From: Escherichia coli
GTDB lineage: Bacteria > Pseudomonadota > Gammaproteobacteria > Enterobacterales > Enterobacteriaceae
Assembly (NCBI RefSeq): GCF_013122565.1
Contig: NZ_CP053258.1
DNA length: 64,000 bases
Direction: 5' to 3' (one strand)
The notes below the pieces were generated by a model. That model was given only the letters and a program-made list of their open reading frames with translations. It ran no database searches and was not told where the DNA came from. Position numbers and translations under genes: made by a program. Shown here piece by piece: positions 8,819 through 64,000 of the stretch (positions within the stretch are counted from its first letter, which is position 1; every line of letters begins with the position of its first letter).

Positions 8819-8999
8819 CCTGACTGTTGGGAAGTTGCGCCGGATCGAACCCATTTCAAGTCCTGGCTACCGGACGGGTGGTGCCGCAGGTAGTGCTCTG
8901 ATCCGGAGTGCAACATGGCGACTCAACATACGTAAACCAGTATCGACAGGCAGTGTAAGGGTAAGGTGCTGGTGTTGCGCTCCTTAATAAGGAGAGCGG

Positions 9000-9089: not shown

Positions 9090-9112
9090 CGGGCAAATTG
9101 AAACGCATCTAA

Positions 9113-9135
9113 GGGGGAATACCGTTTCCCCCTTT
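9113..9135 (+). terminator. Intrinsic terminator after toxin ORF copy 2
   Basis: Same hairpin as 8504-8526. Confidence 0.5.
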
Positions 9136-9270
9136 AATAAAGCTATACTCGTCATACTTCAAGTTGCATGTGCTGCGACTGCGTTCGTTCACCCCGGTCA
9201 CTTACTTTAGTAAGCTCCTGGGAATTCACTCGCTTATCGCCTTCCTGCAACTTGAATTATTTAGAGTATA

Positions 9271-13280: not shown

Positions 13281-13289
13281 GCTCTTTCC

Positions 13290-17048: not shown

Positions 17049-17060
17049 TGCAAATTCCTT

Positions 17061-20897: not shown

Positions 20898-20909
20898 TGC
20901 AAATTCCTT

Positions 20910-24650: not shown

Positions 24651-24662
24651 TGCTAAATCCTT

Positions 24663-39494: not shown

Positions 39495-39605
39495 TATCAT
39501 CGCAACCAAACGACTCGGGGTGCCCTTCTGCGTGAAGGCTGAGAAATACCCGTATCACCTGATCTGGATAATGCCAGCGTAGGGAAGTCACGGACCACCA
39601 GGTCA
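39495..39605 (+). promoter_or_regulatory. TPP (thiamine pyrophosphate) riboswitch in thiM leader
   Basis: ggggtgcccttctgcgtgaaggctgagaaatacccgtatcacctgatctggataatgccagcgtagggaa matches the classic thiM thi-box aptamer, immediately upstream of thiM SD. Confidence 0.8.
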
Positions 39606-47481: not shown

Positions 47482-48756
47482 TCAGGAGATATTCAATGCT
47501 TTCTCAGTCACTGGCGCAGAACTGAATCCTGGCTGCTCAACGCGAATGAATGCGCAAAGGACAAAGGCCAATAGATACAATGCTGTATAGGCAATGACCA
47601 CACCGATAGTGCTAAACCACGGTAATAACACCACGGCAATTGCCGGAGCCAGGAAGTTAGACATACCCGCAGAGAGGTTGTAAACCGAGATTGCAGCACC
47701 TTTGTGTTTTGGTTCCAGTGCCGGGAAGACAGCGGCCATCGGCACAAATGCAGCAACAAAAGTTCCCAGAGCAATCGCCGGAATCATTGCCATCCAGTAG
47801 TTGTGACCAAAGTATTGCGGCATGTAGTAAAACGCTAAACTTGATGCTGCCATCCCGAGGCAACCAAACCAGCGAATAACACGCATCCAGCCCATTTTTT
47901 CTGCCACAATCCCCCAAAAAATATTAGAGAAAATAGTGGTAAAGAAAAATGCCGCCCAGACCTGCAACCATTCAGAGGTGGTGAATCCCAGTTCATCCAC
48001 AAACATCATTGGCATAATGACCGCAAAACCGAATAACGATAAGGTATTTATAATGCGCACAATACTGGAGAGAAAAATATTGCGGTTGGTATAAAGTAAA
48101 GTTACTGCCCGACTTAATTCTGCAAACTTCTCACGGGGAGTTAAATTATGCATATGTCCAGGCGTTTTAACATGACGCAAGGAGATCATGGCAATGACAC
48201 CGCCAGCAAAGCAGAACGCCAGTGCCAGCCATAAGGTTCCCATTTCACCCATAATCGGTATCGTAAAACTGGGAATATAACTGCCAGCAACACCGATCCC
48301 TACTGAATATACCGCCCAGTACCAACCCAGAGCAGCACTGGAATTTTCGCTACGCACGTTATGAATAATAACGACGATAAATGAGTAGAGAAATAGCGGA
48401 TACGCTAAACCACGAATCCCGTAAAACAGCAGGATTAACCCATAGTTTGCCTGTCCTAATCCAAAGACCAGAAACAGAACATGGAATACGCACCATAGGA
48501 CAAAACCAATCAGCATGGTTTTTTGCGGCGTGATGATTTCCGCTACCACCCCAGAAACCCAGGCGGAAAGGGCAGCCGCCAGGCCGTAGAGCGTAAAGGC
48601 AAAAGAGGCTTCCGCAGGTGTGAAGCCTAACGATTTAATATAGTGCGATAAGAATGCGAGTTCGAAACCATCACCAGTCATAAATACTGCGATGGCGATA
48701 TATCCCCATATCAGATGCAGTGGCAAACCCAACCACTGTTTATTATTTCTGGACAT
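47482..48756 (-). CDS. rbtT: MFS polyol transporter (ribitol transporter-like)
   Basis: ~80% identical paralog of the dalT-like gene at 56485..57762; last gene of rbtD-rbtK-rbtT string. Confidence 0.7.
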   Translation of the reverse strand: MSRNNKQWLGLPLHLIWGYIAIAVFMTGDGFELAFLSHYIKSLGFTPAEASFAFTLYGLAAALSAWVSGVVAEIITPQKTMLIGFVLWCVFHVLFLVFGLGQANYGLILLFYGIRGLAYPLFLYSFIVVIIHNVRSENSSAALGWYWAVYSVGIGVAGSYIPSFTIPIMGEMGTLWLALAFCFAGGVIAMISLRHVKTPGHMHNLTPREKFAELSRAVTLLYTNRNIFLSSIVRIINTLSLFGFAVIMPMMFVDELGFTTSEWLQVWAAFFFTTIFSNIFWGIVAEKMGWMRVIRWFGCLGMAASSLAFYYMPQYFGHNYWMAMIPAIALGTFVAAFVPMAAVFPALEPKHKGAAISVYNLSAGMSNFLAPAIAVVLLPWFSTIGVVIAYTALYLLAFVLCAFIRVEQPGFSSAPVTEKALNIS

Positions 48757-48857
48757 ATAAACCTCGTTTTTAGGGTGCAGATGAATGCACTCCGGGATAT
48801 TACCGGAGTGAGTCGTTATTATTGATTGCCTGAAAACAGCGTCAGGCGGCTGGTTAA

Positions 48858-50462
48858 TTAGTCTCTGAGTAATTTTGCAGTATGCTGCAACTGCTTATAG
48901 GCCTCATATCGACGATGATGAAGAGATTGATAGCGTTCTTGCGGATAATAATATTTATCCACATGGGTGAATTGTTGCATCGCTTCGCCAACAGAAGGTG
49001 CAATATTTCCGGCGACAGCACCAAGAATGGCCGAGCCTAATAAAACCGGTTCGCAGCATTGCGTCGTAATGACCGGAATACCGCAAGTATCTGCCAGAAC
49101 TTGTCGTACCAGTGGATGCTGCCCGGCACCGCCGCTAATAACGATATTTTTACTCACTACTCCCTGCGCTGTTTGAGCGTCGAGAATTTGGCGCAGACCA
49201 TAACCAATTCCGCATAATCCAGCGATATACAAGGCGAGTAAATTATCCAGATCTCGCTCCATACCCAGGCCACAAATTACCGCTCTGGCATGAGGATCTG
49301 CGAAGGGGGCGCGATTTCCGAGAAATTCCGGCACCACGTGTAGCCCTTTCGCCAGGGCGACAGCATCTGATGGTTGCGCCGTTTTTTCGAGGATTCGATC
49401 AGCAAGCCAGACGGGGAGGGGCTGATTCACACGTTGTGCCATTTCACGAGCTTCTTCAACAGCCGGATGGAAATCCAGTAGCTGGTCAATAGCTGCTCCC
49501 GCAGCACTTTGCCCGCCTTCAACTAACCACAGACCTGGAACCATCGCACTGTAATACGGCCCCCAGACACCTGGTACAAACGAGGGAGAAGTTGTAGATG
49601 CCATGGTGCATGAAGAAGTGCCGAAAACATACGCGAGATTGTTCAGCGCTCCACCTTCTACGCCAACCGTACCGATGCCACCAGCGTGAGCATCAATTAA
49701 CCCTACAGCGACAGGTGTGCCGGGGAGTAATCCCATCTCTGCCGCGGCTTGTGCTGTTAAACCATTTCCACAAGGTGTTCCGGGAGAAACAATATGATGA
49801 CCAATGCGAATAAAATCTTCATCCGCTAACTCTGCAAGGCCAATGGTGCGGAAATAATCTGGATCCCAGCGATTTTCATGCGCCAGCCACGTCCATTTAC
49901 AGGTAACAGTGCATACTGAACGCGCTAAATCACCGGTAGCCCGCCAGGTCAGAAAATCGGCCAGATCGAAAAATTGTCCGGCCCGTTCGTAGATCTCTGG
50001 CATATTTTCTTTCAGCCAGAGAATTTTCGGTGTTTCCATTTCAGGCGAAATTTTACCACCGACGTAGTTCAGCACCGGATGGTGAGTGGCATTGATTCGC
50101 TCTGCTTGTTCGGTGGCGCGGTGATCCATCCACACAATGATATTTTGCTTTGCATCTCCTTCCGGGCTGACAGGCAATGGATCACCGTTTTTATCCAGTA
50201 CCACCAGAGAACAGGTGGCATCAAAACCGATGCCTGCCACACTTTGTGCACAAACGTCTGCCAGAGTGAGCGCATTACGAATACATGAACAGACCGCCTG
50301 CCAGATCTCCTGGCTGGACTGTTCCACGCGGCTTCCGCTGCGCCGTGTAGTTGTGATTTTTTCTGTGGCATGGGATAGCAGAGATCCGTTGAGATCAAAA
50401 ATCCCGGCGCGGACACTGCCTGATCCCACATCAACACCAATAACGGTTTTGGTTATTGTCAT
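48858..50462 (-). CDS. rbtK: FGGY-family ribulokinase (D-ribulokinase-like)
   Basis: N-terminal VIGVDVGSGSVRAG sugar-kinase motif; start chosen at MTITKT (ORF extends to 50486). Confidence 0.75.
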   Translation of the reverse strand: MTITKTVIGVDVGSGSVRAGIFDLNGSLLSHATEKITTTRRSGSRVEQSSQEIWQAVCSCIRNALTLADVCAQSVAGIGFDATCSLVVLDKNGDPLPVSPEGDAKQNIIVWMDHRATEQAERINATHHPVLNYVGGKISPEMETPKILWLKENMPEIYERAGQFFDLADFLTWRATGDLARSVCTVTCKWTWLAHENRWDPDYFRTIGLAELADEDFIRIGHHIVSPGTPCGNGLTAQAAAEMGLLPGTPVAVGLIDAHAGGIGTVGVEGGALNNLAYVFGTSSCTMASTTSPSFVPGVWGPYYSAMVPGLWLVEGGQSAAGAAIDQLLDFHPAVEEAREMAQRVNQPLPVWLADRILEKTAQPSDAVALAKGLHVVPEFLGNRAPFADPHARAVICGLGMERDLDNLLALYIAGLCGIGYGLRQILDAQTAQGVVSKNIVISGGAGQHPLVRQVLADTCGIPVITTQCCEPVLLGSAILGAVAGNIAPSVGEAMQQFTHVDKYYYPQERYQSLHHRRYEAYKQLQHTAKLLRD

Positions 50463-50472
50463 GATTGCGCCC

Positions 50473-51225
50473 TTACAGATCGACACTGCCAGGCAGGATC
50501 ACTAAATCTCGCACGGTGACATTTTTCGAGCGGGTCACCATAAACAATACTGATTCCGCCACTTCAATCGGTTGCATCAGGCTACCATTTGCCAGGGCTT
50601 CTTCCATTTTGGCTTTTGGCCAGTCATCAAGCAGGGCAGTGACTACTGGTCCTGGCAGCACCGCACCCACACGCACGCCATATTGAGAAACCTGGCGGCG
50701 GGTAGTGTGTACGAATGCCTGAACGGCAAATTTGGACGCGGTGTAGATCGGTTCCCAGATAACCGGAACGACGCCCGCGATGGAACTGGTAAAAATTATA
50801 TCGCCCGACCTCTGCGCAATCATATGCGGCAGGACTGCACGGACACAGCGAAACGCCGCATTTATATTCAGATTTAACACACGATCCCAGACATCTGGAT
50901 CACCTTCAGCCACTGGGCCGCCAATATAAGCGCCTGCATTGGCATGAAAAATATCCAGCCCACCCGCCAGTTCGATAATGTCCGCCAGCATGTTATCGAC
51001 TTGCTGATTATTGAAGAGATCGAGTTGCAGCGCGTACGCGTTTTCGCCTAACTCAGCGACAATCTTGTGCAGTTTGTCGCCTTCCCGGTCAATCAATACT
51101 ACCTTTGCTCCTGCATCGAGCAGCGTTTTTGCACATTGCAGGCCAATACCTGACGCAGCGCCAGTGATAGCTGCAACTTTGCCATTAAGGGGAGTATTCA
51201 TAGAGGGCACAGAGTGATTCATCAT
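50473..51225 (-). CDS. rbtD: Ribitol 2-dehydrogenase (short-chain dehydrogenase/reductase)
   Basis: SDR Rossmann motif GAASGIG; sequence closely resembles Klebsiella RbtD as I recall it. Confidence 0.8.
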
Positions 51226-51383
51226 ATAATCCTTTTACCAGGGCGAATTTATAGTCTCTGTTTGCTTGCACGCACTGAACGGGAATTTAGCTGCCGTGTG
51301 AAGCAAACTGCTCAATCGATGAAGCAGATCTAGCACTTGCTTAAATTCTCAGCAAGAGACATTCAAAATGAAGAGGCAAATTT

Positions 51384-52415
51384 GTGACAAGCGTTGAGAA
51401 AACGAAGAAAACGACCATTTACGACCTGGCAGAATTAACCGGCGTTTCTGCCAGTGCGGTAAGCGCTATTTTGAATGGCAACTGGAAAAAGCGACGCATC
51501 AGCGCAAAGCTGGCTGAGAAGGTCACCCGTATTGCGGAAGAGCAGGGATATGCCATTAATCGGCAGGCAAGTTTACTGCGCAGTAAAAAATCCAACGTTA
51601 TTGGCATGATTGTGCCGAAATATGACAACCGATACTTTGGATCGATTGCCGAAAAATTTGAAGAGATGGCGCGTGCCAGAGGATTACTGCCAATCATCAC
51701 CTGTACGCGGCGACAGCCAGAACTGGAAATTGAGGCTGCTCGCGCCATGCTCTCCTGGCAGGTGGATTGGGTCATTGCTACCGGAGCGACTCAACCGGAT
51801 AAAATAGCCCAAATGTGCCAGCAAGCGGGCGTACCGACACTGAATCTGGATCTGCCGGGAACACTGGCGCCGTCGATCATTTCTGATAACTATATGGGGG
51901 CGAAATTATTGACGGAAAGAATTTTAGCCAACAGCCAGAAACGCTATGGCAAGCTGGCACCTTTGACTTTTGTCGGTGGACGTATAAGCGATAACAATAC
52001 TGCTGAACGTTTACGTGGTTTTGTCGATGCCCATCAGGCTTTGGGGATAACCGTACCGGATGAACATAAACTGGTTACCGGCTACTCTTCTGCTCGCGTA
52101 GAGGGATTACTGAAAGAGGTCTTCCAAAGCTCTGCAGTATCGCTTCACGGGTTATTCGTCAACTCGACAATCTCTCTTGAAGGGGTGGTTCGCTGGCTGG
52201 CGCAAACCGGGCAGACGGGAGCCAATCAACCGCCAATGGGGTGTTTTGACTGGGATCCTTTTGTTTCTCTGCTCGGGCACGATATCGATATGGTTCGTCA
52301 GGATGTACCCGCCATGCTCGAAAAAGTGTTTGAAATTGTGGATTCTGGCGATACCACCCTGCGTCGCATTGAGATACCGCCACAACTCATTCCGAGCCTG
52401 AATGTTGTCAGCTGA
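51384..52415 (+). CDS. LacI-family transcriptional regulator, divergent from rbtD (putative ribitol operon regulator)
   Basis: N-terminal HTH (TIYDLAELTGVSASAVSAILNG), periplasmic-binding-fold C-terminus; GTG start at 51384. Confidence 0.7.
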   Translation: MTSVEKTKKTTIYDLAELTGVSASAVSAILNGNWKKRRISAKLAEKVTRIAEEQGYAINRQASLLRSKKSNVIGMIVPKYDNRYFGSIAEKFEEMARARGLLPIITCTRRQPELEIEAARAMLSWQVDWVIATGATQPDKIAQMCQQAGVPTLNLDLPGTLAPSIISDNYMGAKLLTERILANSQKRYGKLAPLTFVGGRISDNNTAERLRGFVDAHQALGITVPDEHKLVTGYSSARVEGLLKEVFQSSAVSLHGLFVNSTISLEGVVRWLAQTGQTGANQPPMGCFDWDPFVSLLGHDIDMVRQDVPAMLEKVFEIVDSGDTTLRRIEIPPQLIPSLNVVS

Positions 52416-52417
52416 GA

Positions 52418-53359
52418 TTAACGTGTCAGCAACCAGCGTGCGGTGTGTTCATCGGTGACCAGACCGTTGATCCACCCACCTTTTAATGCTGCGAGGATCG
52501 CCGGACGTTTATCCTCACCACAGGCAGCTGCGATACGTGGGCAGTTGCTTTCGCGGATATCATGGCTAGTGATCATCTGGTTGATCTGGCTTTCCACAAC
52601 ATTGCCTTCAGCATCAATAAAGCGTCCGAGGATTTCACCAACGCCTCCGCGTGCTGTTAACTCTTCCAGTTGCTGCTCATCAATAAAGCCATCTTTGAAG
52701 ATAGGGCTTTGACGACCTAAAGCACCAATACCCACGAAAATAACATCAGAGTCACGCGCTACGGTAGAGACGTTGCGGAACAATCGATTGGTTGACCACA
52801 TTTGGTACTCTTCGCGGGACTGAGCATAGCGTGGAGCTGGCCACTGGTAATATTTTCCCTGAATTTTTCTCGCCAAAAGCAGCGGTACGTCGTCGTAATA
52901 GTTACATTGCCCGTGTTCATTCATGGCGCTAATCAGCGCCACACAGCGGGTATTCTGACTATCAAAATCGATACGTTTAATGGTTTTCTTCAACGTTAAG
53001 CCAGAACCAATACCAACGATGGTCGGTTTGTCACCCTGTAAGTAACGCGCCATCAGTTGATAACAGCCAAATGTCACGCTGTCGAGCGTACTTTCAATAC
53101 TGTAAACCGGCATAATATTGCAGTCGGTTAATTGGTACTTTTCCTTTAACAGTTGGGCATAATCGAGACAGTTGGCAACCGGATGATGCAATCCAATCGA
53201 CACAATCCCTTCGTCTTTCGCTGCTGCTATCAGGCGTTGAACCACTGGCCGTGAAGTACCTAACTGACTTGCGATTTCACTCTGATTAAGCCCGGCAATG
53301 TAGTACATCCATGCCGCCCGTACTTTTTGATCGAGCCTGATGTCATCTTCTTTGTTCAC
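52418..53359 (-). CDS. SorC/DeoR-type sugar-binding transcriptional regulator, divergent from dalD (putative arabinitol operon repressor)
   Basis: N-terminal HTH (LNQSEIASQLGTSRPVVQRLI) plus sugar-binding domain. Confidence 0.7.
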   Translation of the reverse strand: MNKEDDIRLDQKVRAAWMYYIAGLNQSEIASQLGTSRPVVQRLIAAAKDEGIVSIGLHHPVANCLDYAQLLKEKYQLTDCNIMPVYSIESTLDSVTFGCYQLMARYLQGDKPTIVGIGSGLTLKKTIKRIDFDSQNTRCVALISAMNEHGQCNYYDDVPLLLARKIQGKYYQWPAPRYAQSREEYQMWSTNRLFRNVSTVARDSDVIFVGIGALGRQSPIFKDGFIDEQQLEELTARGGVGEILGRFIDAEGNVVESQINQMITSHDIRESNCPRIAAACGEDKRPAILAALKGGWINGLVTDEHTARWLLTR

Positions 53360-53571
53360 GTTTCCCTACCTCAAAAGTGGCGTGCGGAATCGTGAAAATC
53401 CCGCAACTGATTAGCGTCATTTTGGCCATAGCTTTACCGCGAGGCAAGTTTATTGCTTTGATTTGGTCATTTGTAATTTTTTTGGTCAATTGTTCTTTTG
53501 TGATCTAACGCTCTTAATTAACTCAAATGTTCGATTACAGTTCAGCCATAACGTCAATGGAGAACGAAACA

Positions 53572-54939
53572 ATGAACGAACAATTTACATGGCTGCACAT
53601 CGGGTTAGGTTCTTTTCATCGCGCACATCAGGCGTGGTATCTACACCGTTTGCAGGTGATGGGCGATAAACGCTGGAGCATTGCTGCGGGCAATATTCGT
53701 AATGATGCTGAACATGTCGTACAGGCACTCAGTGCACAGAAAGGTCGCTATGTGCTGGAAACCGTCAGCCCGGAAGGGGTAAGCGAATATGAAGAGATCA
53801 CCTCAATTCAGAAGTTGATACCGTGGCAGGCAGATTTACAACCGCTGATTGCTGAAGGGGCAGATCCGAAGACAAAAGTGATTGCTTTCACCGTCACCGA
53901 AGGCGGGTACTACCTGAATACCAGTCACAAACTGGAAGTTAACAATCCTGATTTAGCGGCAGATCTTAAAGGGGGATGCAAAACAATTTACGGTGTTATT
54001 ACCCGTATCCTCGAAGCGCGTATGGCAAATAACGCCGGACCACTAACCCTGCTGAATTGCGATAACGTGCGCCATAATGGTGAACGTTTCCATGATGGCC
54101 TGGTTGAGTTTCTCCAGCTAACTGGCAAACAGGATGTCATCGACTGGCTGAGTACAAATACCACTTGCCCGAATACCATGGTTGACCGCATTACGCCTCG
54201 TCCGGCAGCAGAACTTCCGGCACGGATCAAGGCTCAAACGGGTATTGCCGATAAAGCGCCGGTAATGGGCGAAACCTTTATCCAGTGGGTCGTGGAAGAT
54301 AATTTCCGTGATGTCCGTCCGGCACTGGAGAAGGTCGGTGTCGAACTGGTGGCGTCGGTAATCCCCTATGAAGAGGCGAAGATTCGCATTCTTAACTCTT
54401 CACACAGTTGCATCGCCTGGGCAGGTACGTTAATCGGTCAAAAATATATCCACGAAAGCACAATGACCGATTTTATCTATCAGATTGCCGACCGCTACGT
54501 GACGGAAGATGTCATTCCTTGCCTGGGCGATAACGGTATCGATTTGCCAACCTACCGTGATGTTGTACTCAAGCGTTTTACCAATCCACATATTCAGGAC
54601 ACCAACCAACGCGTCGCTGCGGATGGTTTCTCGAAAATTCCGGCGATGATTGCCCCCACACTGCGAGAGTGCTACCAGCGAGGCGTTCGCCCGAATGCCA
54701 CCGCCATGTTACCTGCACTGTTTTACGTATTCATGGAGCAGTGGCATCACGGCAAACTGCCCTATGAATATCAGGATGGCATCCTTGATGCACCAGCTGT
54801 CCATGCAATGTTCCAGTCTGCCGATCCCGTCGCTGTTTATGCCAGTGATAAAGCGCTGTTTGGCGATTTAACCGAACGTGAAGATTTTGCCGCGTTGTTG
54901 CGCGAAAAAATCGCTGACGTCTACGCGTTAATTAACTAA
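53572..54939 (+). CDS. dalD: D-arabinitol 4-dehydrogenase (mannitol dehydrogenase family)
   Basis: N-terminus [23 protein letters not shown] typical of the mannitol/arabinitol dehydrogenase family; TGGAGAA SD. Confidence 0.8.
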
Positions 54940-54952
54940 CCAGGAGGCGGTT

Positions 54953-56416
54953 ATGTATCTGGGTATCGATCTGGGCACATCGGAAGTTAAGGCGCTGGTC
55001 ATTGATGAAAACAATGAAATTGTTGCCACCCATAGTGCGCCGCTGACCATTCAGCGGCCCCATCCACACTGGTCAGAACAATCGCCGCAAGCCTGGTGGG
55101 AAGCGACGGAATATTTAATGTCGACCCTGCGGGAAAAATGCGGTCACCACTGGCAGGCGATCAAAGCCATTGGCCTTTCTGGTCAAATGCATGGTGCCGT
55201 CCTGTTGGATGAAAAAGGAGAGGCGATTCGTCCGGCGATTTTATGGAACGACACCCGCAGTGCGCAGGAGTGTGCGGAGCTGGAAGAGATCGCACCAGAG
55301 TTGCATCAGGTAGCGGGAAACCTGGCGATGCCTGGATTTACCGCCCCCAAATTGCTATGGGTACGGCGCCATGAGCCGCAGCATTTTGCGCGCATTTCCA
55401 CCGTTTTACTGCCGAAAGACTATTTGCGTTTCAAAATGACCGGCCAAAAGATTTCCGATATGTCGGATTCTGCTGGCACGTTGTGGCTCGACGTGGAAAA
55501 ACGCGACTGGTCAGATTCGTTGCTGGAAAAATGTGGCCTGACACGGGCGAATATGCCGGAACTGGTGGAAGGTTGTGACGTTTCTGCCACTCTTTCCCCT
55601 GAAGTTGCCAGCCGTTGGGGGCTGACATCTTCGGTTGTAGTTGCTGGTGGCGGTGGCGATAACGCCGTGAGCGCAATTGGTGTGGGGGCCGTTTCTCCCG
55701 GAGATGCGTTTATTTCTTTGGGAACTTCCGGGGTGTTGTTTGTGGTGACAGATGCCTATCGTCCTGCGCCGCAATCAGCAGTCCATGCTTTCTGTCACGT
55801 ACTACCGAATTTATGGCACCAGATGAGTGTAATGCTCAGTGCCGCCAGTTGTCTGCAATGGTTCTGCCGTCTGGTGGGGGTAACGGAAACAGAGTTACTG
55901 GAAGAGATTACCCAACTTTCTGATGCAGACAAAGCCAGTGCACCGATGTTCCTCCCGTATCTTTCTGGTGAACGTACGCCACATAACGATCCTCATGCCC
56001 GGGGATTGTTCTGGGGGCTGACACACTCCAGTCAGCGTGCGCTAATGGGATATGCAGTGCTGGAAGGCGTCAGCTTTGGTATTGCCGATGGGCTGCGAGT
56101 CCTGCAAGAAAGCGGTACGGCAATTGAGCAATGCTCGCTGGTAGGTGGGGGGGCGAGAAGTCCATTCTGGGCGCAGTTACTGGCCGATATTCTCGATATG
56201 CCAGTGGTGACGCATAAAGGCGGTGAAACGGGTGGGGCGCTGGGAGCCGCGCGTCTGGCCTGTCTTGCTGCGGGAAAACCACTGGCGGCAGTGTGTGAAA
56301 AACCTGAAATCTTCAAAACCTGGCGCAGCGATCCTGAACGTCATAAGGCGCTGATGCAACGATATCAGCAGTTTACTGCGCTGTATCACAACGACCTGAA
56401 CTATCGCAATCAATAA
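54953..56416 (+). CDS. dalK: Xylulokinase (FGGY family)
   Basis: MYLGIDLGTSEVKALV N-terminus; CAGGAGG SD. Confidence 0.8.
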   Translation: MYLGIDLGTSEVKALVIDENNEIVATHSAPLTIQRPHPHWSEQSPQAWWEATEYLMSTLREKCGHHWQAIKAIGLSGQMHGAVLLDEKGEAIRPAILWNDTRSAQECAELEEIAPELHQVAGNLAMPGFTAPKLLWVRRHEPQHFARISTVLLPKDYLRFKMTGQKISDMSDSAGTLWLDVEKRDWSDSLLEKCGLTRANMPELVEGCDVSATLSPEVASRWGLTSSVVVAGGGGDNAVSAIGVGAVSPGDAFISLGTSGVLFVVTDAYRPAPQSAVHAFCHVLPNLWHQMSVMLSAASCLQWFCRLVGVTETELLEEITQLSDADKASAPMFLPYLSGERTPHNDPHARGLFWGLTHSSQRALMGYAVLEGVSFGIADGLRVLQESGTAIEQCSLVGGGARSPFWAQLLADILDMPVVTHKGGETGGALGAARLACLAAGKPLAAVCEKPEIFKTWRSDPERHKALMQRYQQFTALYHNDLNYRNQ

Positions 56417-56484
56417 CATCTGTCACAAATGCCCTCCGGTGTTTGCACCGGAGCGGCGTTTTGTATCCTACAAACGAGGTCACT

Positions 56485-57762
56485 ATGTCGTTAACAAATA
56501 AACAATGGCTGGGATTACCCTTAAATCTGGTGTGGGGATATATTGCCATTGCCATCTTTATGACCGGAGACGGTTTTGAACTGGCATTCCTGTCGCATTA
56601 CATTAAAGCACTGGGTTTCACGCCTGCAGAAGCCTCCTTTGCCTTTACGCTCTATGGCCTGGCGGCAGCGCTTTCCGCCTGGGTTTCCGGCGTAGTTGCC
56701 GAAATCATTACGCCACAAAAAACCATGTTTATCGGCTTCGTGCTGTGGTGCGTATTTCACGTGCTGTTTCTTGTCTTTGGTCTGGGGCAGGCGAACTATG
56801 GGTTAATCCTGCTGTTTTATGGTATTCGTGGCCTGGCCTATCCGCTGTTCCTCTACGCCTTTATTGTGGCGATTGTCCATAACGTACGCAGTGACAGCAC
56901 CAGTGCTGCGCTGGGCTGGTTCTGGGCAGTTTACTCTATTGGTATCGGCGTATTCGGCAGCTACATCCCCAGTTTTACCATTCCACTTATTGGCGAAATG
57001 GGAACATTATGGCTGGCGCTGGCCTTCTGTGGGGTTGGTGGCGCTGTTGCGTTAATTTCTATGCGCAAAGTAGAAACACCACGCCATATGCAAAACCTCA
57101 CCACAAAAGAGAAGTTTAGCGAACTGGGCCGTGCGGTGACTTTGCTTTATACCAACCGCAATATTTTGCTTTCCAGTATTGTTCGCATTATCAACACCTT
57201 ATCTTTATTCGGATTCGCCGTAATTATGCCGATGATGTTTGTTGATGAGCTGGGCTTTACCACCTCTGAGTGGTTGCAGGTCTGGGCAGTCTTCTTCTTT
57301 ACCACCATCTTCTCTAACGTATTCTGGGGCGTGCTGGCAGAGAAAATGGGCTGGATGAAAGTTGTTCGCTGGTTTGGTTGCGTGGGAATGGCGCTTTCAA
57401 GCCTGGCGTTCTACTACATGCCGCAACATTTCGGTCATAACTTTGCTATGGCGCTGATACCTGCGGTGGCACTGGGGATCTTTGTTGCTGCATTCGTACC
57501 GATGGCAGCCGTTTTCCCGGCACTGGAACCGAAACATAAAGGAGCAGCTATTTCGGTTTATAACCTTTCCGCCGGGTTGTCCAACTTCCTTGCTCCGGCA
57601 ATCGCCGTGGTACTTCTGCCTTATTTCAGTACTATTGGTGTGGTTATCGCTTACACCACCCTGTATGTGATAGCGTTTATTATTTGCCCGTTTATTCGCG
57701 TCGAACAACCGGGATTCTCAAATCAGCAAGTGTGTGAAGGGAAGACCGCCACCATTTCCTGA
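56485..57762 (+). CDS. dalT: MFS polyol transporter (arabinitol transporter-like)
   Basis: Start at MSLTNKQWLGLPL; paralog of 47482..48756. Confidence 0.75.
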   Translation: MSLTNKQWLGLPLNLVWGYIAIAIFMTGDGFELAFLSHYIKALGFTPAEASFAFTLYGLAAALSAWVSGVVAEIITPQKTMFIGFVLWCVFHVLFLVFGLGQANYGLILLFYGIRGLAYPLFLYAFIVAIVHNVRSDSTSAALGWFWAVYSIGIGVFGSYIPSFTIPLIGEMGTLWLALAFCGVGGAVALISMRKVETPRHMQNLTTKEKFSELGRAVTLLYTNRNILLSSIVRIINTLSLFGFAVIMPMMFVDELGFTTSEWLQVWAVFFFTTIFSNVFWGVLAEKMGWMKVVRWFGCVGMALSSLAFYYMPQHFGHNFAMALIPAVALGIFVAAFVPMAAVFPALEPKHKGAAISVYNLSAGLSNFLAPAIAVVLLPYFSTIGVVIAYTTLYVIAFIICPFIRVEQPGFSNQQVCEGKTATIS

Positions 57763-57806
57763 TGACGACAAGCCTGGTGTGGTGCCAGGCTTTATTGCGA
57801 GGAACA

Positions 57807-58460
57807 ATGTTTAATTGTAAAGCAGTCATTTTTGATATGGACGGCGTCATCATTGATTCGGAAGGGTTATGGCGTGAGGCACAAAAGGGAGCACTGGCAA
57901 GGTGGGGCGCATGTGTCAGTGAAGAAGAGTGTATAAGACTGACTAAAGGTAAAAGGCTGGATGAGATTGCCCAAACCTGGTGTGAATATTGTCATTTACA
58001 CATTGAACCCGCACTGTTGGAAAGTGAGATTCGCCGCCTGATCACTACGTTGATTGCCGGGACGGGCGAAGCGATGCCAGGCGTTCAGGACGTGTTATCT
58101 TTTTTGCGCCGGAGTGGCTATCAACTGGCGCTGGCAACCTCTTCATCTTACCAGGTGATCGATGCTGTACTGACAAAACTCAATATTCAGCACTATTTTT
58201 CGGTGATTTGTAGTGCTGATGACGAAAAGCATGGGAAACCACATCCGGCAGTTTATCTTTCTGCACTGCGAGAATTGCAACTGTCTGCTGCAGATTGTTT
58301 GGTTATAGAGGACAGCGTGAGTGGTTTTCAGGCAGCACAGGCGGCAGGAATAAACACCATTGTGGTATCAGAAGATGCCCAACAAACCTGCTTTAATGCG
58401 GCGAGTGCAAGATATTTATCGATGAATGAATTACTGGCAGCGTTAGCCGTAGCTGCGTAA
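57807..58460 (+). CDS. HAD-superfamily hydrolase (phosphatase/beta-phosphoglucomutase-like)
   Basis: AVIFDMDGVIIDS motif at N-terminus; start chosen at MFNCK (ORF begins 57762). Confidence 0.6.
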   Translation: MFNCKAVIFDMDGVIIDSEGLWREAQKGALARWGACVSEEECIRLTKGKRLDEIAQTWCEYCHLHIEPALLESEIRRLITTLIAGTGEAMPGVQDVLSFLRRSGYQLALATSSSYQVIDAVLTKLNIQHYFSVICSADDEKHGKPHPAVYLSALRELQLSAADCLVIEDSVSGFQAAQAAGINTIVVSEDAQQTCFNAASARYLSMNELLAALAVAA

Positions 58461-58533
58461 CAAAAAAGGGTGAGCGCAGAAGATCCCAGGGATGATGCCG
58501 GTCTGCTAATCCTGCTTCTGCGCTTGCTTTTAT

Positions 58534-59433
58534 TTAACGTAAAAGCGGGCAATCTGGTGGCAGACGGCAACGCAACGCTGCCGGAAGTATTTCAATATGA
58601 AAATTTTGCCCACTCAACGGTTCGCCATCAAGATTAAAGGTGATGTCGTGTGGTGCCTGAATATCAAACCACGACGAAGCGCCTTCGATAATATTCGGGT
58701 TATCTTCGTCAGATTTTAAGGTTGATACGAGAGCTGGAAGAATTTCATCGCCGGTAAAAATGCGCAGTTGCAGCAAGCCATCGTTAATTAACGCGTTCGG
58801 ACACAATTGCTGACCGCCACCGGCCTGACGCCCGTTACCAATACCAATGACCAGGGCGTCACCTTGCCAGTGAAAGTTTTCACCGTGGATTTCACAACGG
58901 TCCGGTTGCAGAGTATCCATGCGCATTAAGCCATGAATGATGTAAGAGACGCCACCCAGCGCGGCTTTTAATTTTTCCGGCGTTTCTGTGGTAATACGCG
59001 TCCCAAATCCGCCTGTCGCCATATTAATAAAACAGGTTTGTTTGTTGACCTGCGCCATATCTATCGCAATGGCGTTACCGGCAATTGCCAGTTTCAGCGC
59101 CTTATCCAGTGCCTCAGGAATCCCTACACTGGTGGCAAAATCATTGGCGGTTCCTAATGGCAAAATTCCCAGCGCGGGTATGTCATCCCCCTCACACTGA
59201 ATCAACGCCGTAGAAACTTCATTAATGGTGCCATCGCCACCACCGGCAATCACCGTTGCGACGCCCAACTTCCGGGCCTCCTCTACATATCGTGCGGCAT
59301 CGCCTTTCTCCCAGGTAACCCGCACATGGATCGTCATTCCTTCCTCACGCAACAGCATAATTGCTTCGCGCAAGGGTAGATTGTCAGTACTTTTGCCATT
59401 AAGAATCAGTAAGCTGGCGGGAAATTCTGCCAT
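58534..59433 (-). CDS. yegS: Lipid kinase YegS (299 aa)
   Basis: DAG-kinase-like GGDGT motif; synteny. Confidence 0.9.
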
Positions 59434-59846
59434 GATCGTATGTGCCTTTATGATTGGTCTGTAGATAGTGTAGAGCAGAAAAGAAAAGGTGGAGTCAGAA
59501 CAGGATGAAAGTCGGAGGATAAAAAGTCAGTTCAAGTATGGAGGATTCAGTGGTTACCACCAGGAGCTTGCAATGGGAACAGCGAATATTAACGGTAGCC
59601 ACCGATAAATTTCAAAAAAGAGCATATGCCTAATATTCAACCAAACAGTGGCATCTTAAATATACTATTCCAAATATATTAAAGCCCCATGGAGTTACCT
59701 GGAAAGGGCCTTCATGTCTGTAATTCCTACTTATGTAGGAAATGTTGTACAGAACATTTATTATAATCCTATTCAAATATAATAATCAGCCATTATTATA
59801 TTTAAACACTAGAGAGTGTCGTTGGTATTTAATGGGGAAAGGTGAG

Positions 59847-60164
59847 ATGAAAAAGATAGCTGCTATATCATTAATTAGTATTTTTATTATGTCTGGTTGT
59901 GCTGTGCATAATGATGAGACAAGTATCGGTAAATTTGGCCTTGCATATAAAAGTAATATTCAGCGTAAACTCGATAACCAATACTACACCGAAGCCGAAG
60001 CTTCTTTAGCCAGGGGTAGAATATCTGGTGCAGAAAATATAGTAAAAAATGATGCAGCTCATTTCTGTGTTACTCAGGGCAAAAAAATGCAGATAGTTAA
60101 ATTGAAGACAGAAGGTGCAGGATTACATGGCGTCGCTCGTCTGACATTCAAATGTGGAGAGTGA
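59847..60164 (+). CDS. yegR: Small lipoprotein YegR (105 aa)
   Basis: MKKIAAISLISIFIMSGC signal peptide with lipobox; ORF 59742..60164 trimmed. Confidence 0.7.
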   Translation: MKKIAAISLISIFIMSGCAVHNDETSIGKFGLAYKSNIQRKLDNQYYTEAEASLARGRISGAENIVKNDAAHFCVTQGKKMQIVKLKTEGAGLHGVARLTFKCGE

Positions 60165-60322
60165 GAATATTTTTTGGTTAGCGTCAAACATGCGCGTTCT
60201 GGCTGTGCGTAGCCGGAACCTGTGCGAGCACGATGCCGTTACGTGAAAGGCATCGTGCTATGAAGGGAGATTCTATCGATGTGGTCAATGGAAGACGGTG
60301 ACCAGGGATAGGGCTTATGTAC

Positions 60323-60349
60323 AAAAAATAAGCCCGTGTAAGGGAGATT
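60323..60349. mobile_element. P2-type 27-bp attachment core (attL of prophage)
   Basis: AAAAAATAAGCCCGTGTAAGGGAGATT, which I recall as the phage P2 att core, located about 80 bp beyond the 3' end of int. Confidence 0.7.
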
Positions 60350-60428
60350 TAGGGTGTCACCAGTAGGGGCTTTCAACGGTACAATGCGGGTTTGAGCGGC
60401 ATAAATTACCACTGAAAGCCCTTAAACG

Positions 60429-61442
60429 TTACTCTACTGTGGACACTGTGTGGACACTCTCGGCCTCAGTACCACCTCTTAGCGGATTAAGAGAAATGGC
60501 GTCCTGAAGGTACTCTGGCGCAAAATGAGCGTAAACCATAGTTTGCTCAATCCGCGTGTGACCTAGTATCCGTTGTAGCGTGATAATACTTCCTCCATTA
60601 ATCATGAAATGAGTGGCAAAGCTGTGCCTTAGTGCATGTGTGGCTTGCCCCATTGGCAAATCCGGTTTTATTGCTTTCATTGTTCGTCTGAAGCGAGGGT
60701 AATCAGCATCAGGGAATAAAAAACCTCGTTTGTTATCCGCGATCATTTTGGCAACAGCCTCTGAGATCGGGACGGTGCGTGGTTTGTTTGTTTTCGTTTT
60801 AACAAACGTGACGCGGTTATGGATGATATTTTCTGCTTTCAAACGAGCTGCTTCTCCCCAACGTGCTCCAGTACTCAGGCAAAGAATCGCAATCTTTTTG
60901 TTGTCGCCGTCAAGAGCAGCAAGCAGTAAGGCAATTTCTTCCTGCGTGAGATAGCCTGTGTCTGGTTTTTCCTCCTTAAGCCTTTTTGTCCCTCTGATAG
61001 GGTGCTCACCAAAGAATAACTCCGCTTCAATCAGGGCTGTAAACATGCCGCTAATACATGTTAAATCACGATTGATACTCGAAGGTTTAATACCCTGACT
61101 TCTTCGGGTGGCGCAGTACTGGCTGATAAGCGATTTCGTAATTTGAAATGCGCATGGGTCATTCGTTATTTTTGTGAAGATTTCAATTTTTCCAAGATTA
61201 GATTTCCCATGCTCTTCGTGTTTACCCTTTAAATCCCACCAGATCTGTGTCAGCTCCGACAGACGTCGCTTGTCTGTTGGTTTTGATAGCCATTCTTTAT
61301 TGTGGTGGTTGTACAACGTGTATTTCTCGAAAGCGACAGCTTCGCTTTTCTTATCAAACTTCCTACGGATGCGTTTTCCATTACGTCCAGTAGGGCGGAT
61401 GTCCACTTCATATCGACCATCATCGAGTTTTTTGATTGCCAT
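60429..61442 (-). CDS. int: P2-type tyrosine integrase (337 aa)
   Basis: Tyrosine recombinase catalytic residues (R...HxLRHSFATH...Y near C-terminus). Confidence 0.9.
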   Translation of the reverse strand: MAIKKLDDGRYEVDIRPTGRNGKRIRRKFDKKSEAVAFEKYTLYNHHNKEWLSKPTDKRRLSELTQIWWDLKGKHEEHGKSNLGKIEIFTKITNDPCAFQITKSLISQYCATRRSQGIKPSSINRDLTCISGMFTALIEAELFFGEHPIRGTKRLKEEKPDTGYLTQEEIALLLAALDGDNKKIAILCLSTGARWGEAARLKAENIIHNRVTFVKTKTNKPRTVPISEAVAKMIADNKRGFLFPDADYPRFRRTMKAIKPDLPMGQATHALRHSFATHFMINGGSIITLQRILGHTRIEQTMVYAHFAPEYLQDAISLNPLRGGTEAESVHTVSTVE

Positions 61443-61557
61443 CAGAAAACCCTCCGAGTGGTGTGTTTTTTTGCGACTACTAATCGCTTTTTTCGTGGTG
61501 GCTGAAATTTAGCCACCAATAGTAGGCACTTGTGATGAATATATTCACGATGAATTG

Positions 61558-61857
61558 TTAACCAGTCTTTTGACCGGAGTGGGGCGACGTTGTTTCGTTT
61601 TGCCCAAAGTGTGCGAGAGCGGGCGCAATTTGCCCGGACTCAGGAGCGATCTGATTGGTCATGAACCATAAAGTGTATTTGGTGAATTGTGGGGTCTGCA
61701 GGATGTTCATCATGACATCTGTTGGAGGTGTTGAACGACCACTTTCATAGTAACTCAGCGTGCCATACGGAACCCCTGTTAAATCAGCAAGTTGTTGTCT
61801 GCTCAAATACTCTGATTTTCGCATTAAGACTATCTTCTCGCTTATCGTGTTTGACAT
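61558..61857 (-). CDS. P2-type immunity repressor C (99 aa)
   Basis: HTH (LSRQQLADLTGVPYGTLSYYE); divergent from cox. Confidence 0.85.
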   Translation of the reverse strand: MSNTISEKIVLMRKSEYLSRQQLADLTGVPYGTLSYYESGRSTPPTDVMMNILQTPQFTKYTLWFMTNQIAPESGQIAPALAHFGQNETTSPHSGQKTG

Positions 61858-61971
61858 GGTGTTTAGATCTCAATAGTATTTGGTTTAGATGTAGATTGTT
61901 TAGTGCTTGGATGTGGGCACTAAAAGGCATTATAAGACATTAAACGCAATTCATGAGGGCTAGAGGACGAC

Positions 61972-62247
61972 ATGAGCAAGCAAGTAACACTCATGACTGA
62001 TGCGATTCCTTATCAGGAGTTCGCAAAACTAATAGGAAAATCGACAGGAGCGGTTCGTCGGATGATCGATAAAGGAAAGCTGCCTGTAATTGATATGACC
62101 GATCCACAATCAGCTTCAGGTCGTGCAGGTGAATATTGGGTATACCTTCCGGCATGGAATAACGGACTAAAACTGGCTTATGAAAGCCGCCCTAAAGAGA
62201 TTCGTGACGGCTGGTTGATGTGGTTAGGTCTCGGTGAACCACGTTAA
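61972..62247 (+). CDS. cox: P2-type Cox (excisionase/transcriptional switch, 91 aa)
   Basis: Size, position and divergent orientation to C. Confidence 0.8.
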   Translation: MSKQVTLMTDAIPYQEFAKLIGKSTGAVRRMIDKGKLPVIDMTDPQSASGRAGEYWVYLPAWNNGLKLAYESRPKEIRDGWLMWLGLGEPR

Positions 62248-62428
62248 GGAGAACCGTATGAATGAGCCTCGTTGTATTGCTCAGTTACTGCGTAACGAAA
62301 GCCCCAGGGCGATTGACTTCACCATCACCCACGGTAAGGGGCGTAAGGGAATCATTATCCGCACCAAAAAACAGAGTCCGTTAAAAAAGGCTCTGACCTT
62401 TCTGAAAAGCCGGAGGGTATGGAAATGA
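62234..62428 (+). CDS. Small early-region hypothetical protein (P2 orf78 position)
   Basis: ORF overlapping cox stop; position only. Confidence 0.45.
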   Translation: MNHVKENRMNEPRCIAQLLRNESPRAIDFTITHGKGRKGIIIRTKKQSPLKKALTFLKSRRVWK

Positions 62429-62925
62429 CAGTGATGACGCTCAATCTCGTTGAAAAACAGCCAGCAGCTATGCGCCGGATAATTGGTAAGCATCTTGCCG
62501 TTCCTCGCTGGCAGGATACATGTGATTATTATAATCAGATGATGGAGCGCGAACGGCTAACAGTTTGCTTTCATGCGCAGTTAAAACAGCGTCACGCAAC
62601 GATGCGTTTTGAAGAAATGAACGACGTCGAACGTGAACGACTGGTATGTGCAATTGATGAATTGCGTGGGGCATTCTCAAAACGTCGTCAGGTCGGTGCA
62701 AGTGAGTATGCATATATTAGTTTTTTAACAGTCAGTCAGCGTCGTACTTTATTTATGCATGCCGGATTGACTGAAAAAGAATTTAACCAGCCATACTGGC
62801 GAATTAATGAAGAGTCATGTTACTGGCGTGATGCTTTATTCCGTGCATTACGTGAATTATTCAGCCTGTTTGAGTATGCACCGACAATTCTGACGTCGGT
62901 AAAACCAGAGCAATATCTGCATTAA
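62419..62925 (+). CDS. P2 B-like replication (helicase-loader) protein
   Basis: 168-aa ORF in B position after cox. Confidence 0.65.
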   Translation: MEMTVMTLNLVEKQPAAMRRIIGKHLAVPRWQDTCDYYNQMMERERLTVCFHAQLKQRHATMRFEEMNDVERERLVCAIDELRGAFSKRRQVGASEYAYISFLTVSQRRTLFMHAGLTEKEFNQPYWRINEESCYWRDALFRALRELFSLFEYAPTILTSVKPEQYLH

Positions 62926-62988
62926 GTAATTAACCAGAGTTTTTAACGCACTTAATCGTGCGGGGCTTCTTTTTGCCTGGAGAAAGTT

Positions 62989-63213
62989 ATGCATACAGTT
63001 TCTGAAAATCAGTGCGGTAAATACGCATTACTGCTGCAACAGGCCAGAACCGAAGCACAGGCCGACGCTGCGACGCGCTTTTCTTCTCATCTTGATGCCA
63101 TGATTCGCCACATCACAAAGGCGGAGTTATCCCGCGTGGAGATAGTCGAGCTGCTCAGTCAGGAGTCGGAAAAATTTCACAATATCGGATTGTCTCGCGG
63201 GGAGGTGCTTTGA
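62989..63213 (+). CDS. Early-region hypothetical protein (P2 orf80 position)
   Basis: Position and size. Confidence 0.5.
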
Positions 63214-63515
63214 TGTCCTGTTCTCGTTCAGTTGTATTACTGAATAACGCCTTAAAAATCGCCGTTATGAAAAATGGCGATTTGTCTCTTATTCAACTTG
63301 GTCTTGATAAAGAAAAACGCGAAATAACTGAGTCTGTTATCGCGATTTATCAGAACGAATTAAACCTCCTGTCTGATGTGGTCAATTTGCTTGTTAAACG
63401 CGCTGTGTTTCACAAGCAAATCTCCTCCGTGGATGAACTGACGAAATTAACGACAGAAATCGCCAGCTATTGCGCTGATGAATTTAAAAACCTTAACAAC
63501 AAAAGGAACTGGTAA
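63210..63515 (+). CDS. Early-region hypothetical protein (P2 orf81 position)
   Basis: Position and size; ATGA overlap with previous ORF. Confidence 0.5.
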
Positions 63516-63739
63516 TGCCGGACAACGTAGATTTTATTCAGGAACAACAGGCTGAATTACTGGAGCGCCAGATTAACGCGGCAAGGGTAAAACATTGCGG
63601 TGCTTCTGCGATGGTTTGCGAAGAGTGTGACGCGCCAATACCTGCTGCCCGTCGTGCGGCTTATCCGTCAGCCACGCGTTGTGTTTCCTGTCAGTCAGTT
63701 TTTGAAGCAAAAAACAAACATTACCGGAGAACGGCATGA
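63515..63739 (+). CDS. DksA/TraR-type C4 zinc-finger protein (P2 orf82 position)
   Basis: CEECDAPIP...RCVSCQ four-cysteine motif. Confidence 0.6.
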   Translation: MPDNVDFIQEQQAELLERQINAARVKHCGASAMVCEECDAPIPAARRAAYPSATRCVSCQSVFEAKNKHYRRTA

Positions 63740-64000
63740 GTATTCGTATTGAAATTGGCGAACGTTATGTCGTTACCAGTGACAGCTTTCAGTTTATTCT
63801 CCACGAGAAAAAGAGAGCTGAAAGCGGTAAAAACGCCGGTCAGGAATGGCTGGCGGTGGTTGGTTATTACCCGAAATTAAGCCAGCTCGTTTCCGGCCTG
63901 ATGCATCACGATATTCTGACCGGAAGCGCAAAGTCTTTTGCTGATTTAAACGCGCAGGTTGAGCAACTCAGCAAGCGTTGTTCAGAGGCTTTTGGCTCAT
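63736..64000 (+). CDS. Early-region hypothetical protein (P2 orf83 position), 3' end outside window
   Basis: ATG at 63736 overlapping previous stop; open to window end. Confidence 0.45.
   Translation, partial: MSIRIEIGERYVVTSDSFQFILHEKKRAESGKNAGQEWLAVVGYYPKLSQLVSGLMHHDILTGSAKSFADLNAQVEQLSKRCSEAFGS

Follow-up and report, generated by a model that had tools for sequence, protein, structure and literature searches.

The last part of the window, by which we mean the whole stretch of 64,000 nt that was analysed, starts at 60323-60349 (+ strand) with a 27-bp core, AAAAAATAAGCCCGTGTAAGGGAGATT, that exactly matches both the attP core of phage P2 and the 3' end of the host gene cyaR. Behind the core come int, C, the Pe/Pc switch, cox, orf78, B and orf80-83, arranged as in P2, with int and C on one strand, cox and the genes behind it on the other, and the Pc and Pe promoters diverging between them; gene A, the next in the series, was seen only in L008, a public short-read assembly that extends the locus. 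The window holds 3.7 kb of an element of ~31 kb, the late genes, the cos site and the second copy of the core lying outside it. The original prediction of a P2-like prophage beside yegR, at the locus where K-12 carries a remnant, was borne out by the identity to P2, by the junction and by the annotation of MG1655, and the coordinates, lengths and order that it gave for the core, int, C, cox and B were all correct.

The integrase gene int (60429-61442, - strand) encodes a 337-aa tyrosine integrase that matches the PHROG integrase family (phrog_1, E = 2e-85). It has the catalytic Phage_integrase and N-terminal arm-binding domains of tyrosine recombinases, PF24624 and PF00589 being recorded for the L008 product of the same DNA sequence. 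The 99-aa immunity repressor C (61558-61857, - strand; phrog_147, E = 3e-41) and the 91-aa Cox (61972-62247, + strand), an excisionase, Pc repressor and P4 activator in P2 terms, come next, and cox was matched independently by the PHROG family for Cox-like excisionases and repressors (phrog_272, E = 1e-45). Comparison of Int, C and Cox with P2, a check proposed beforehand, gave 336 of 337 residues, 100% and 100% identity, respectively. All remaining genes lie on the + strand: orf78 (62258-62428, 56 aa, 100% identical to P2 Orf78), the replication gene B (62425-62925, 166 aa, 165 of them as in P2 gpB), orf80 (62989-63213, 73 of 74 residues), orf81 (63213-63515, 95 of 100), orf82 (63515-63739, 73 of 74), which encodes a DksA/TraR-type zinc finger, and orf83 (63736-64000), with 88 of its 91 codons inside the window. 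The products of orf80, orf81 and orf82 also matched PHROG families. In the mechanical list of open reading frames, B appears with 168 aa, starting at an upstream ATG. All nine genes are intact.

At the DNA level, the region is 98.9% identical to P2 (AF063097 / NC_001895) over 3,686 nt, a value measured on 3.7 kb out of the ~31-33 kb to which the genome-wide threshold for the species, at least 95% nucleotide identity to P2, refers. The 39 nt that differ are SNPs, densest in B and orf81, and all but one fall within genes. Even closer relatives are Peduovirus P24C9 (LR595883 / NC_049388) and Escherichia phage 10W (OM475433), both 99.9% identical over 60323-64000.

The sites on which the phage proteins would act are conserved as well. 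The early promoter Pe (TTGACA-17-TAGTAT) and its operators occupy 61851-61890 on the + strand, with hexamers and operators identical to those of P2: two 8-bp direct repeats, O1 (61861-61868) and O2 (61883-61890), both GTTTAGAT, flank the Pe -10 hexamer, which together with the 99-aa C constitutes a switch of the P2 type. The sole change from P2 in the Pe region is an A-to-G substitution one base before O2, and Pe was the top promoter-like site of the scan. On the - strand, the Pc promoter of the C-int transcript (61929-61954) is identical to the P2 annotation. A putative terminator 3' of B (62947-62974, + strand) was placed by offset from the P2 annotation, from which it differs by one SNP, and a hairpin was found there by the scan. 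Between the core and int, the Cox-binding region of attL (60366-60439) shows no difference from the annotated Cox protein_bind feature of P2, and the two TGTGGACA repeats of the Int P' arm (60437-60463) are likewise identical to the annotation; the published Int arm consensus is tgTGGaCa (PMC3448106). In all, the core, the Cox region, the P' arm, Pe, O1, O2 and Pc are unchanged with respect to P2.

The core itself occurs only once in the 64-kb window. As simple arithmetic gives about 1e-11 expected occurrences of an exact 27-mer in 128 kb of two-strand sequence, a chance origin is excluded. Its letters are those of the terminal 27 nt of cyaR, an sRNA gene, and the site, between yegR and trhP (yegQ), is the canonical, preferred chromosomal site of P2, named locI. 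Its left flank is the yegR side of the E. coli chromosome and its right flank the P2 P' arm. The reciprocal attR (P arm-core-cyaR) lies 30.3 kb away in strain EC26, where Rfam identified an intact CyaR, and 30.8 kb away in OZ197100.1. A search with the 27-mer across contigs of species-representative genomes returned 11 loci. Insertion of P2-like prophages at cyaR has been tabulated for E. coli W (Wphi2), K-12 (ogr-D') and B (P2*B) (PMC3032704), and our likening of Wphi2 and P2*B to the present case concerns the tabulated site only.

Taken together, the 27-bp core, the arm repeats and the gene order make it very nearly certain, as judged from sequence, that 60323-64000 represents the attL junction and the whole immunity and early region of a prophage at locI that belongs to phage P2 (genus Peduovirus) and to the P2 immunity type. 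A P2 prophage at cyaR/locI is in itself already known and well described in the literature; it is textbook phage biology. We infer the functions of genes and sites from classical P2 work; what the present analysis shows is the sequence identity to P2, where the junction lies and how often it occurs among E. coli genomes. On that footing, Int together with IHF would recombine the attP core with its exact 27-bp counterpart in cyaR, which forms the 3' half of the terminator and the U-tail of that gene. Because the phage core is identical to these 27 bp, cyaR would be restored intact at attR, and the leftover 27-nt duplicate would remain at attL, adjoining yegR. In the lysogen, Pc would drive C together with int, and C bound to the two operators flanking the Pe -10 would keep the early operon cox-orf78-B-orf80-83-A off. 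Firing of Pe would open the lytic route, in which Cox would repress Pc and act as excisionase at the Cox sites located between core and P' arm, rolling-circle replication then being started by B and A.

The window ends one base before the ATG of gene A, which would begin at base 64001, at a point where several RefSeq records were rotated; the right edge is an artefact of assembly rotation at P2 gene A and no biological boundary. L008, a Logan contig retrieved by matching the exact YegR protein, agrees with the last 14,153 nt of the window at 100% identity, and its likeness to our strain past base 64000 is assumed. Beyond that base it carries gene A, intact at 755 aa, then a cargo gene and, from the portal gene, 303 codons. 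The contig stops ~17.7 kb past the window end, short of attR; in OZ197100.1, the tail-fibre gene H is reached after the same distance. Gene H is a typical break point for short-read assemblies. Complete P2-type late genes, cos and attR are exemplified by EC26 and OZ197100.1.

This continuation bears on whether the prophage is still functional. The left end, from int to A, could be all that is intact in a defective or cryptic element whose late region has been deleted or has decayed, with loss of phage production. Exactly such a state exists in PSJ-12, which has the same int-to-A block at the same locus and whose prophage reaches only ~13 kb beyond the start of gene A, largely as pseudogene fragments; gene A of EC26 is truncated to a pseudogene, and K-12 represents the end point of such decay. 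Against this stand the nine intact genes, the regulatory sites, every one of them unchanged from P2, and the intact gene A, cargo gene and portal codons along the ~17.7 kb of the identical assembly, so that we regard a defective prophage as possible but unlikely. That the junction is an assembly chimera, or belongs to an element that is not P2-like, such as a satellite with a P2-type integrase, is next to inconceivable: hundreds of complete, independent genomes share this junction, the P2 early operon is there in full while P4-type satellites have another gene set, and we found no support for either version.

Returning to the P2 prophage, the region beyond gene A had been suspected to carry defence cargo, and in L008 the A-Q hotspot does hold one defence-candidate gene. 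The P2 A-Q cargo hotspot is already well described, and P2 itself carries tin and old there (PMC9122126), whereas L008 has a single RloC/PrrC-like gene in their place, at 16670-18889 of the contig. Its 739-aa product was called by PADLOC as candidate PDC-S06 over its full length (E = 4e-253), matched Pfam AAA_13 (E = 2e-102) and, over residues 456-734, PrrC (E = 2.5e-14); CCPFC and R-x6-H motifs were spotted by eye. An anticodon nuclease of the RloC/PrrC type would combine an N-terminal ABC/AAA_13 ATPase bearing a CxxC insert with a C-terminal PrrC-like nuclease domain. Searches of NCBIfam and the PDB returned no family and no homologue, respectively. The cargo segment was in no phage record of the collection, the best match having 32% coverage and 77.5% identity; P24C9 and 10W, so close to the window up to base 64000, differ in hotspot content, and neither contains it. 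On these grounds, the strain very probably carries P2 hotspot cargo in the form of this RloC/PrrC-like defence candidate. The PDC-S06 family is widespread, and our searches found no functional test of it.

The switch also allows an expectation about induction. Coliphage 186 and the 'P2' prophage of E. coli HS have a P2-like architecture in common with the present element and are SOS-inducible; their switch is CI/Apl and their antirepressor, tum, is under LexA control (for HS, bioRxiv 10.1101/2024.06.12.598711), whereas the switch here is C/Cox. No LexA-box-like CTG-N10-CAG motif was present in the phage part of the window (60323-64000), and gene calling in the L008 cargo region gave just the 739-aa gene and a 31-aa ORF, neither of them tum-like. 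Classical P2 is non-inducible. Given a repressor that matches P2 C at every residue and no sign of a LexA/tum module, DNA damage is not expected to induce the prophage, and mitomycin C, which had been proposed as a check, suits such a prophage poorly.

How the prophage came to lie at this site was addressed by comparison across the species. The yegS-yegR-att-int-C-cox-B junction was found in 737 of 5,426 complete E. coli genomes (~14%, about 1 in 7). A synthetic-attB query matched 4,565 genomes, at 96.7-98.9% among the matches listed; in these, the site is either unoccupied or interrupted by no more than ~1 kb, the K-12 remnant being an example. By megablast, the top complete RefSeq E. coli genomes matched the window at 99.1%, with 5.5 kb, and at 98.7%, with 25 kb. 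The earlier remark that K-12 has a P2 remnant here proved right: MG1655 is annotated with the 'cryptic prophage PR-X' (ogrK and the pseudogene yegZ) between cyaR and yegR. PR-X shares with the window the att site and the host flank, and everything that the window holds from int to orf83 is deleted from it; what is left begins with 18 nt from the attL core, continues with 611 bp that comprise D', ogr and the P arm, and ends in the attR core.

Because these 18 nt of attL core are fused to gene D, K-12 must once have held a full prophage at this position, and to that extent the suggestion that the window may show the ancestral state stood. A vertically inherited prophage that gave rise to PR-X would account for the shared site, for the retained core joined to gene D and for the 97.2% identity of the remnant to P2, although, as the D-ogr end lies outside the window, a direct comparison with the remnant is impossible. 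Occupancy is nevertheless patchy, the 737 genomes with the junction standing against the 4,565 whose site is unoccupied or nearly so. Moreover, one host backbone 99.86% identical to that of the window (L005) has an empty site, and another, 99.58% identical (L007), has a P2 variant of 97.9% identity with a different cargo, a SIR2 gene. The ancestral state was not borne out, and we hold vertical inheritance to be very unlikely. As such near-identical backbones differ in this way, the comparison favours recent and repeated lysogenisation over inheritance.

In the host flank, an alignment to the annotated Int P-arm site of P2 revealed a putative fossil P2-type P-arm integrase site at 60276-60305. 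Its local score of 38 compares with 14.8 +/- 2.2 for shuffled sequences, 0 of 2000 shuffles reaching 38. This fossil arm is part of attL as it stands and is absent from the incoming phage. K-12, EC26 and both unoccupied-site sequences examined have it too, and it is covered by the synthetic-attB query. We found no description of it in literature searches, the primary P2 att-site paper being outside their reach. P2 Ogr and D have no homology to the left of it. The 10-nt AAGGGAGATT at 60262-60271 was considered as a second degenerate core and rejected, K-12 and EC26 having AAGGAGGATT; in the alignment it falls on the ogr-terminator side of the P arm, and it is treated as part of the fossil arm, or as chance. 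Old phage cargo was likewise rejected as an origin for yegR, YegR occurring in no phage record except two that include host flank.

A surviving arm-type site, TGTGGTCA, lies inside a 28-nt stretch that is invariant in all E. coli flanks examined. It is conceivable, if improbable, that the locI attB arose by decay from the attR of an ancient P2-like prophage and that TGTGGTCA still binds Int, contributing to site preference or modulating excision; the attL of the window would then be a pseudo-attP made up of a P-arm-like site, the core and the P' arm. A fuller copy of the P arm was found in Escherichia sp. MOD1-EC7003, and the fossil arm is a small clue that P2-like phages have used and recycled this site since before Escherichia diversified.

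The window has a single copy of the 27-bp att core (AAAAAATAAGCCCGTGTAAGGGAGATT), which lies at 60323-60349 (+ strand) and is the same as that of P2. It is followed by int (60429-61442, -, 337 aa), C (61558-61857, -, 99 aa), cox (61972-62247, +, 91 aa), orf78 (62258-62428, +, 56 aa), B (62425-62925, +, 166 aa), orf80 (62989-63213, +, 74 aa), orf81 (63213-63515, +, 100 aa), orf82 (63515-63739, +, 74 aa) and orf83 (63736-64000, +), with codons 1-88 of 91 of the latter inside the window. A sequence and ORF check found the coordinates, protein lengths and gene order (core, int, C, cox, B) of the original prediction to be all right, and PHROG profiles independently called an integrase, a repressor, a Cox-like excisionase/repressor and a DksA-like zinc-finger protein.

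In a megablast search against 50,697 phage records, 60323-64000 matched Peduovirus P24C9 and Escherichia phage 10W at 99.9% identity and P2 (AF063097) at 98.9%, in each case over the whole stretch; base-by-base alignment with P2 revealed 39 differences in 3,678 nt. At the protein level, the suggested comparison of int, C and cox with P2 gave 336/337 matching residues for Int and 100% identity for C and Cox. Orf78 was also 100% identical, with B (165/166), Orf80 (73/74), Orf81 (95/100) and Orf82 (73/74) close behind. Only one difference is intergenic, an A-to-G change 1 base before operator O2, and all annotated P2 regulatory elements are unchanged: the Cox-binding region (60366-60439), the Int P' arm repeats (60437-60463), Pe (TTGACA-17-TAGTAT, 61851-61879), operators O1 and O2 (each GTTTAGAT, at 61861 and 61883) and Pc (61929-61954). 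Pe was also the top sigma-70-like site in an unbiased scan. As judged by sequence, the element in 60323-64000 is phage P2 apart from a few SNPs. The predicted P2-like prophage is supported, with qualifications, by this near-identity and by a junction at the canonical site of P2; that the window holds the left end of a P2 prophage at this site is confirmed, and the arrangement is already known, common and unremarkable.

The functions of these genes and sites are taken from classical P2 work, our own evidence being sequence identity. Int and IHF would recombine attP with attB within the core. C, expressed from Pc along with int, would bind O1 and O2 and block Pe, while Cox, expressed from Pe, would repress Pc and direct excision at boxes lying between core and P' arm; B and A would start replication. 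Given a repressor identical to P2 C, no CTG-N10-CAG motif in 60323-64000 and no tum-like gene seen in the cargo region of the Logan contig described below, DNA damage would not be expected to induce the prophage, in contrast to its inducible 186-type relatives, the E. coli HS prophage among them (bioRxiv 10.1101/2024.06.12.598711). Mitomycin C induction, proposed originally as a check, is thus not the right test for this prophage.

To the left of the core lies E. coli chromosome (yegS, then yegR), and to its right the P2 P' arm. A second core was found 30,270 bp from an attL matching that of the window in strain EC26, and 30,805 bp from one in OZ197100.1, an isolate with a complete prophage. 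In both, the P2 P arm precedes the second core and cyaR, then trhP (yegQ), directly follow it. Rfam detected a full-length CyaR RNA that ends in the core, at attR of EC26 and in K-12. This arrangement makes the 27-bp core the 3' end of cyaR, comprising terminator loop, descending stem and U-tract. Integration rebuilds cyaR at attR, with a 27-nt duplicate left behind at attL. In classical P2 work this site is called locI. The paper on the E. coli W genome (PMC3032704) tabulates "cyaR RNA" as a P2 insertion site, with Wphi2 there in strain W, ogr-D' in K-12 and P2*B in strain B.

Among 5,426 complete RefSeq E. coli genomes, 737 share the yegS-yegR-core-int-C-cox-B...orf83 junction, counted where a single place covered at least 80% of the yegS-to-orf83 query. 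A query built as an empty site from yegR flank, core, cyaR and trhP matched 4,565 genomes (at least 80% in one place, with small K-12-type remnants counted in), and the site is therefore interrupted by more than 1 kb in about 860. P2-like loci between genes A and Q in E. coli genomes numbered 18,150 in the count of Rousset et al. (PMC9122126). P2 at the cyaR/yegR site is an ordinary arrangement in this species. Outside it, Kluyvera intermedia (NZ_JAKCNS010000008.1, 860-999) has the same core and cyaR attached to a diverged P2-like P arm, and the site is therefore used by P2-like phages in Kluyvera too; the exact core directly abuts cyaR-like sequence in other Kluyvera genomes, at 6 of 11 loci from a species-representative scan. 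Two contigs from metagenome-assembled genomes, one labelled 'Collinsella sp.' (JAIJJM010000051.1) with an E. coli-type P2 attR beside cyaR, the other 'Citrobacter sp.' (DXKH01000116.1) with an E. coli-type attL that shares 97.7% identity with the window, probably come from E. coli and were placed in the wrong bin.

An exact-protein look-up of the YegR variant of the window led to Logan contig SRR11451224_30 (locus L008), which is 100% identical to window 49848-64000 (14,153 nt, zero mismatches). Past the window end, gene A is intact there (755 aa) and is followed by a 31-aa ORF, one opposite-strand 739-aa gene (L008 16670-18889, -, about 2.5-4.7 kb past the window end) and the portal gene Q. 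The 739-aa gene is the sole defence-candidate gene in the A-Q hotspot of this contig. Its product matches Pfam AAA_13 (E = 2e-102) and, from end to end, PADLOC candidate PDC-S06 (E = 4e-253); its C-terminal 280 residues match PrrC (E = 2.5e-14), and inspection by eye revealed a mid-protein CCPFC motif and an R-x6-H motif near the C-terminus. CCPFC-type and R-x6-H motifs are features of RloC-type anticodon nucleases. The protein is thus RloC/PrrC-like by sequence and a candidate defence gene. It is indexed exactly in 698 blocks of a public collection, and in all 10 of the places listed a P2-like prophage carries it in its A-Q interval; it was absent from the isolated phage genomes of the collection searched, and a search for a solved homologue found none. 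In an assembly with a near-identical host (L007), an 864-aa SIR2 protein occupies the A-Q position instead. The A-Q region is a known cargo hotspot (PMC9122126). The prediction of defence cargo downstream of A was therefore reasonable, and a candidate for such cargo is seen in this window-identical contig, although the sequence concerned lies outside the window.

The contig extends about 17.7 kb past the window end, a distance that in OZ197100.1 reaches the tail-fibre gene H, and its end there would fit breakage of the assembly at a repeat, the structural region being otherwise of full length. That the prophage is defective somewhere past the visible part seems rather unlikely to us; it draws on EC26, where gene A is truncated, and on strain PSJ-12 (NZ_AP027622.1), which has the same intact int-to-A block, yet just ~13 kb of prophage past the gene A start, mostly pseudogene fragments. 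An intact left end is no proof of a live phage.

PSJ-12 is an intermediate between the full prophage and the K-12 remnant. The MG1655 annotation places cryptic prophage PR-X (ogrK, yegZ pseudogene) between cyaR and yegR, in agreement with the P2 remnant that the original prediction placed at this locus. In window orientation, K-12 has the yegR flank and 18 nt from the start of the core, then 611 bp at 97.2% identity to P2 (the D 3' end, ogr and P arm), and last the full core and cyaR. K-12 thus derives from a genome that held a whole P2-type prophage here, and the stretch from within the attL core to within gene D has been lost. Of the proposal that the window shows the "ancestral intact or longer state", the longer state is supported; ancestry of this particular prophage is not demonstrated, as one host backbone 99.86% identical to the window (L005) has an empty site and another, 99.58% identical (L007), carries a P2 variant only 97.9% identical, with the other cargo gene.

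In the host flank, window 60276-60305 (TCGATGTGGTCAATGGAAGACGGTGACCAG) aligns with the annotated Int P-arm site of P2 (local score 38; shuffles 14.8 +/- 2.2, 0/2000 reaching 38). This fossil arm is present in K-12, in EC26 and in both unoccupied-site sequences examined, and the synthetic empty-site query (4,565 genomes) spans it. Across 14 distinct flank variants with varying adjoining bases, a 28-nt stretch is invariant, and the fossil is conserved in every E. coli flank viewed. Escherichia sp. MOD1-EC7003 has a longer copy with an IHF-site-like segment at P2 spacing, where E. coli has a 16-nt deletion; in the divergent "E. coli" E69, yegS is directly joined to the core, without yegR or fossil. 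No ogr or D homology remains left of the arm. The most economical interpretation makes the Escherichia attB a decayed attR, left by a much older P2-like prophage; the arm, a putative Int site, may have retained Int binding. Searches of the searchable literature found no mention of it, and primary att-site papers may already describe it. YegR itself was considered as a phage protein and is not one in the phage collection.

The window stops exactly 1 base before the gene A ATG. Eight RefSeq E. coli chromosome records among the matches listed end at the same base, and position 1 of NZ_AP027622.1 is the start of a "replication endonuclease", with orf83 annotated across the origin. This pattern points to rotation of assemblies to the replication gene of the prophage and not to dnaA; an assembler start-gene routine probably took P2 gpA for a replication initiator and rotated the source record, and the phage would continue at the opposite end of the circular record.

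Elsewhere in the window, five tandem ORFs of about 1,215-1,278 aa each (9633-28469, -) were taken as yehH/yehI-type DUF4132 paralogues from their position and a partial similarity to EC26, which has just two there, one a pseudogene. Rfam detected two OrzO-P antitoxin RNAs of the zor-orz type I toxin-antitoxin (8072-8145 and 8681-8754, -), one at the edge of and the other inside a ~1-kb segment (~8248-9247) missing in EC26. Between fbaB and yegS (~48100-58460), the window has a ribitol/D-arabitol (rbt/dal) cluster and a HAD hydrolase gene, at the position where K-12, like many other strains, carries the gat (galactitol) operon. A TPP riboswitch (39506-39602, +) lies, as expected, upstream of thiM-thiD.
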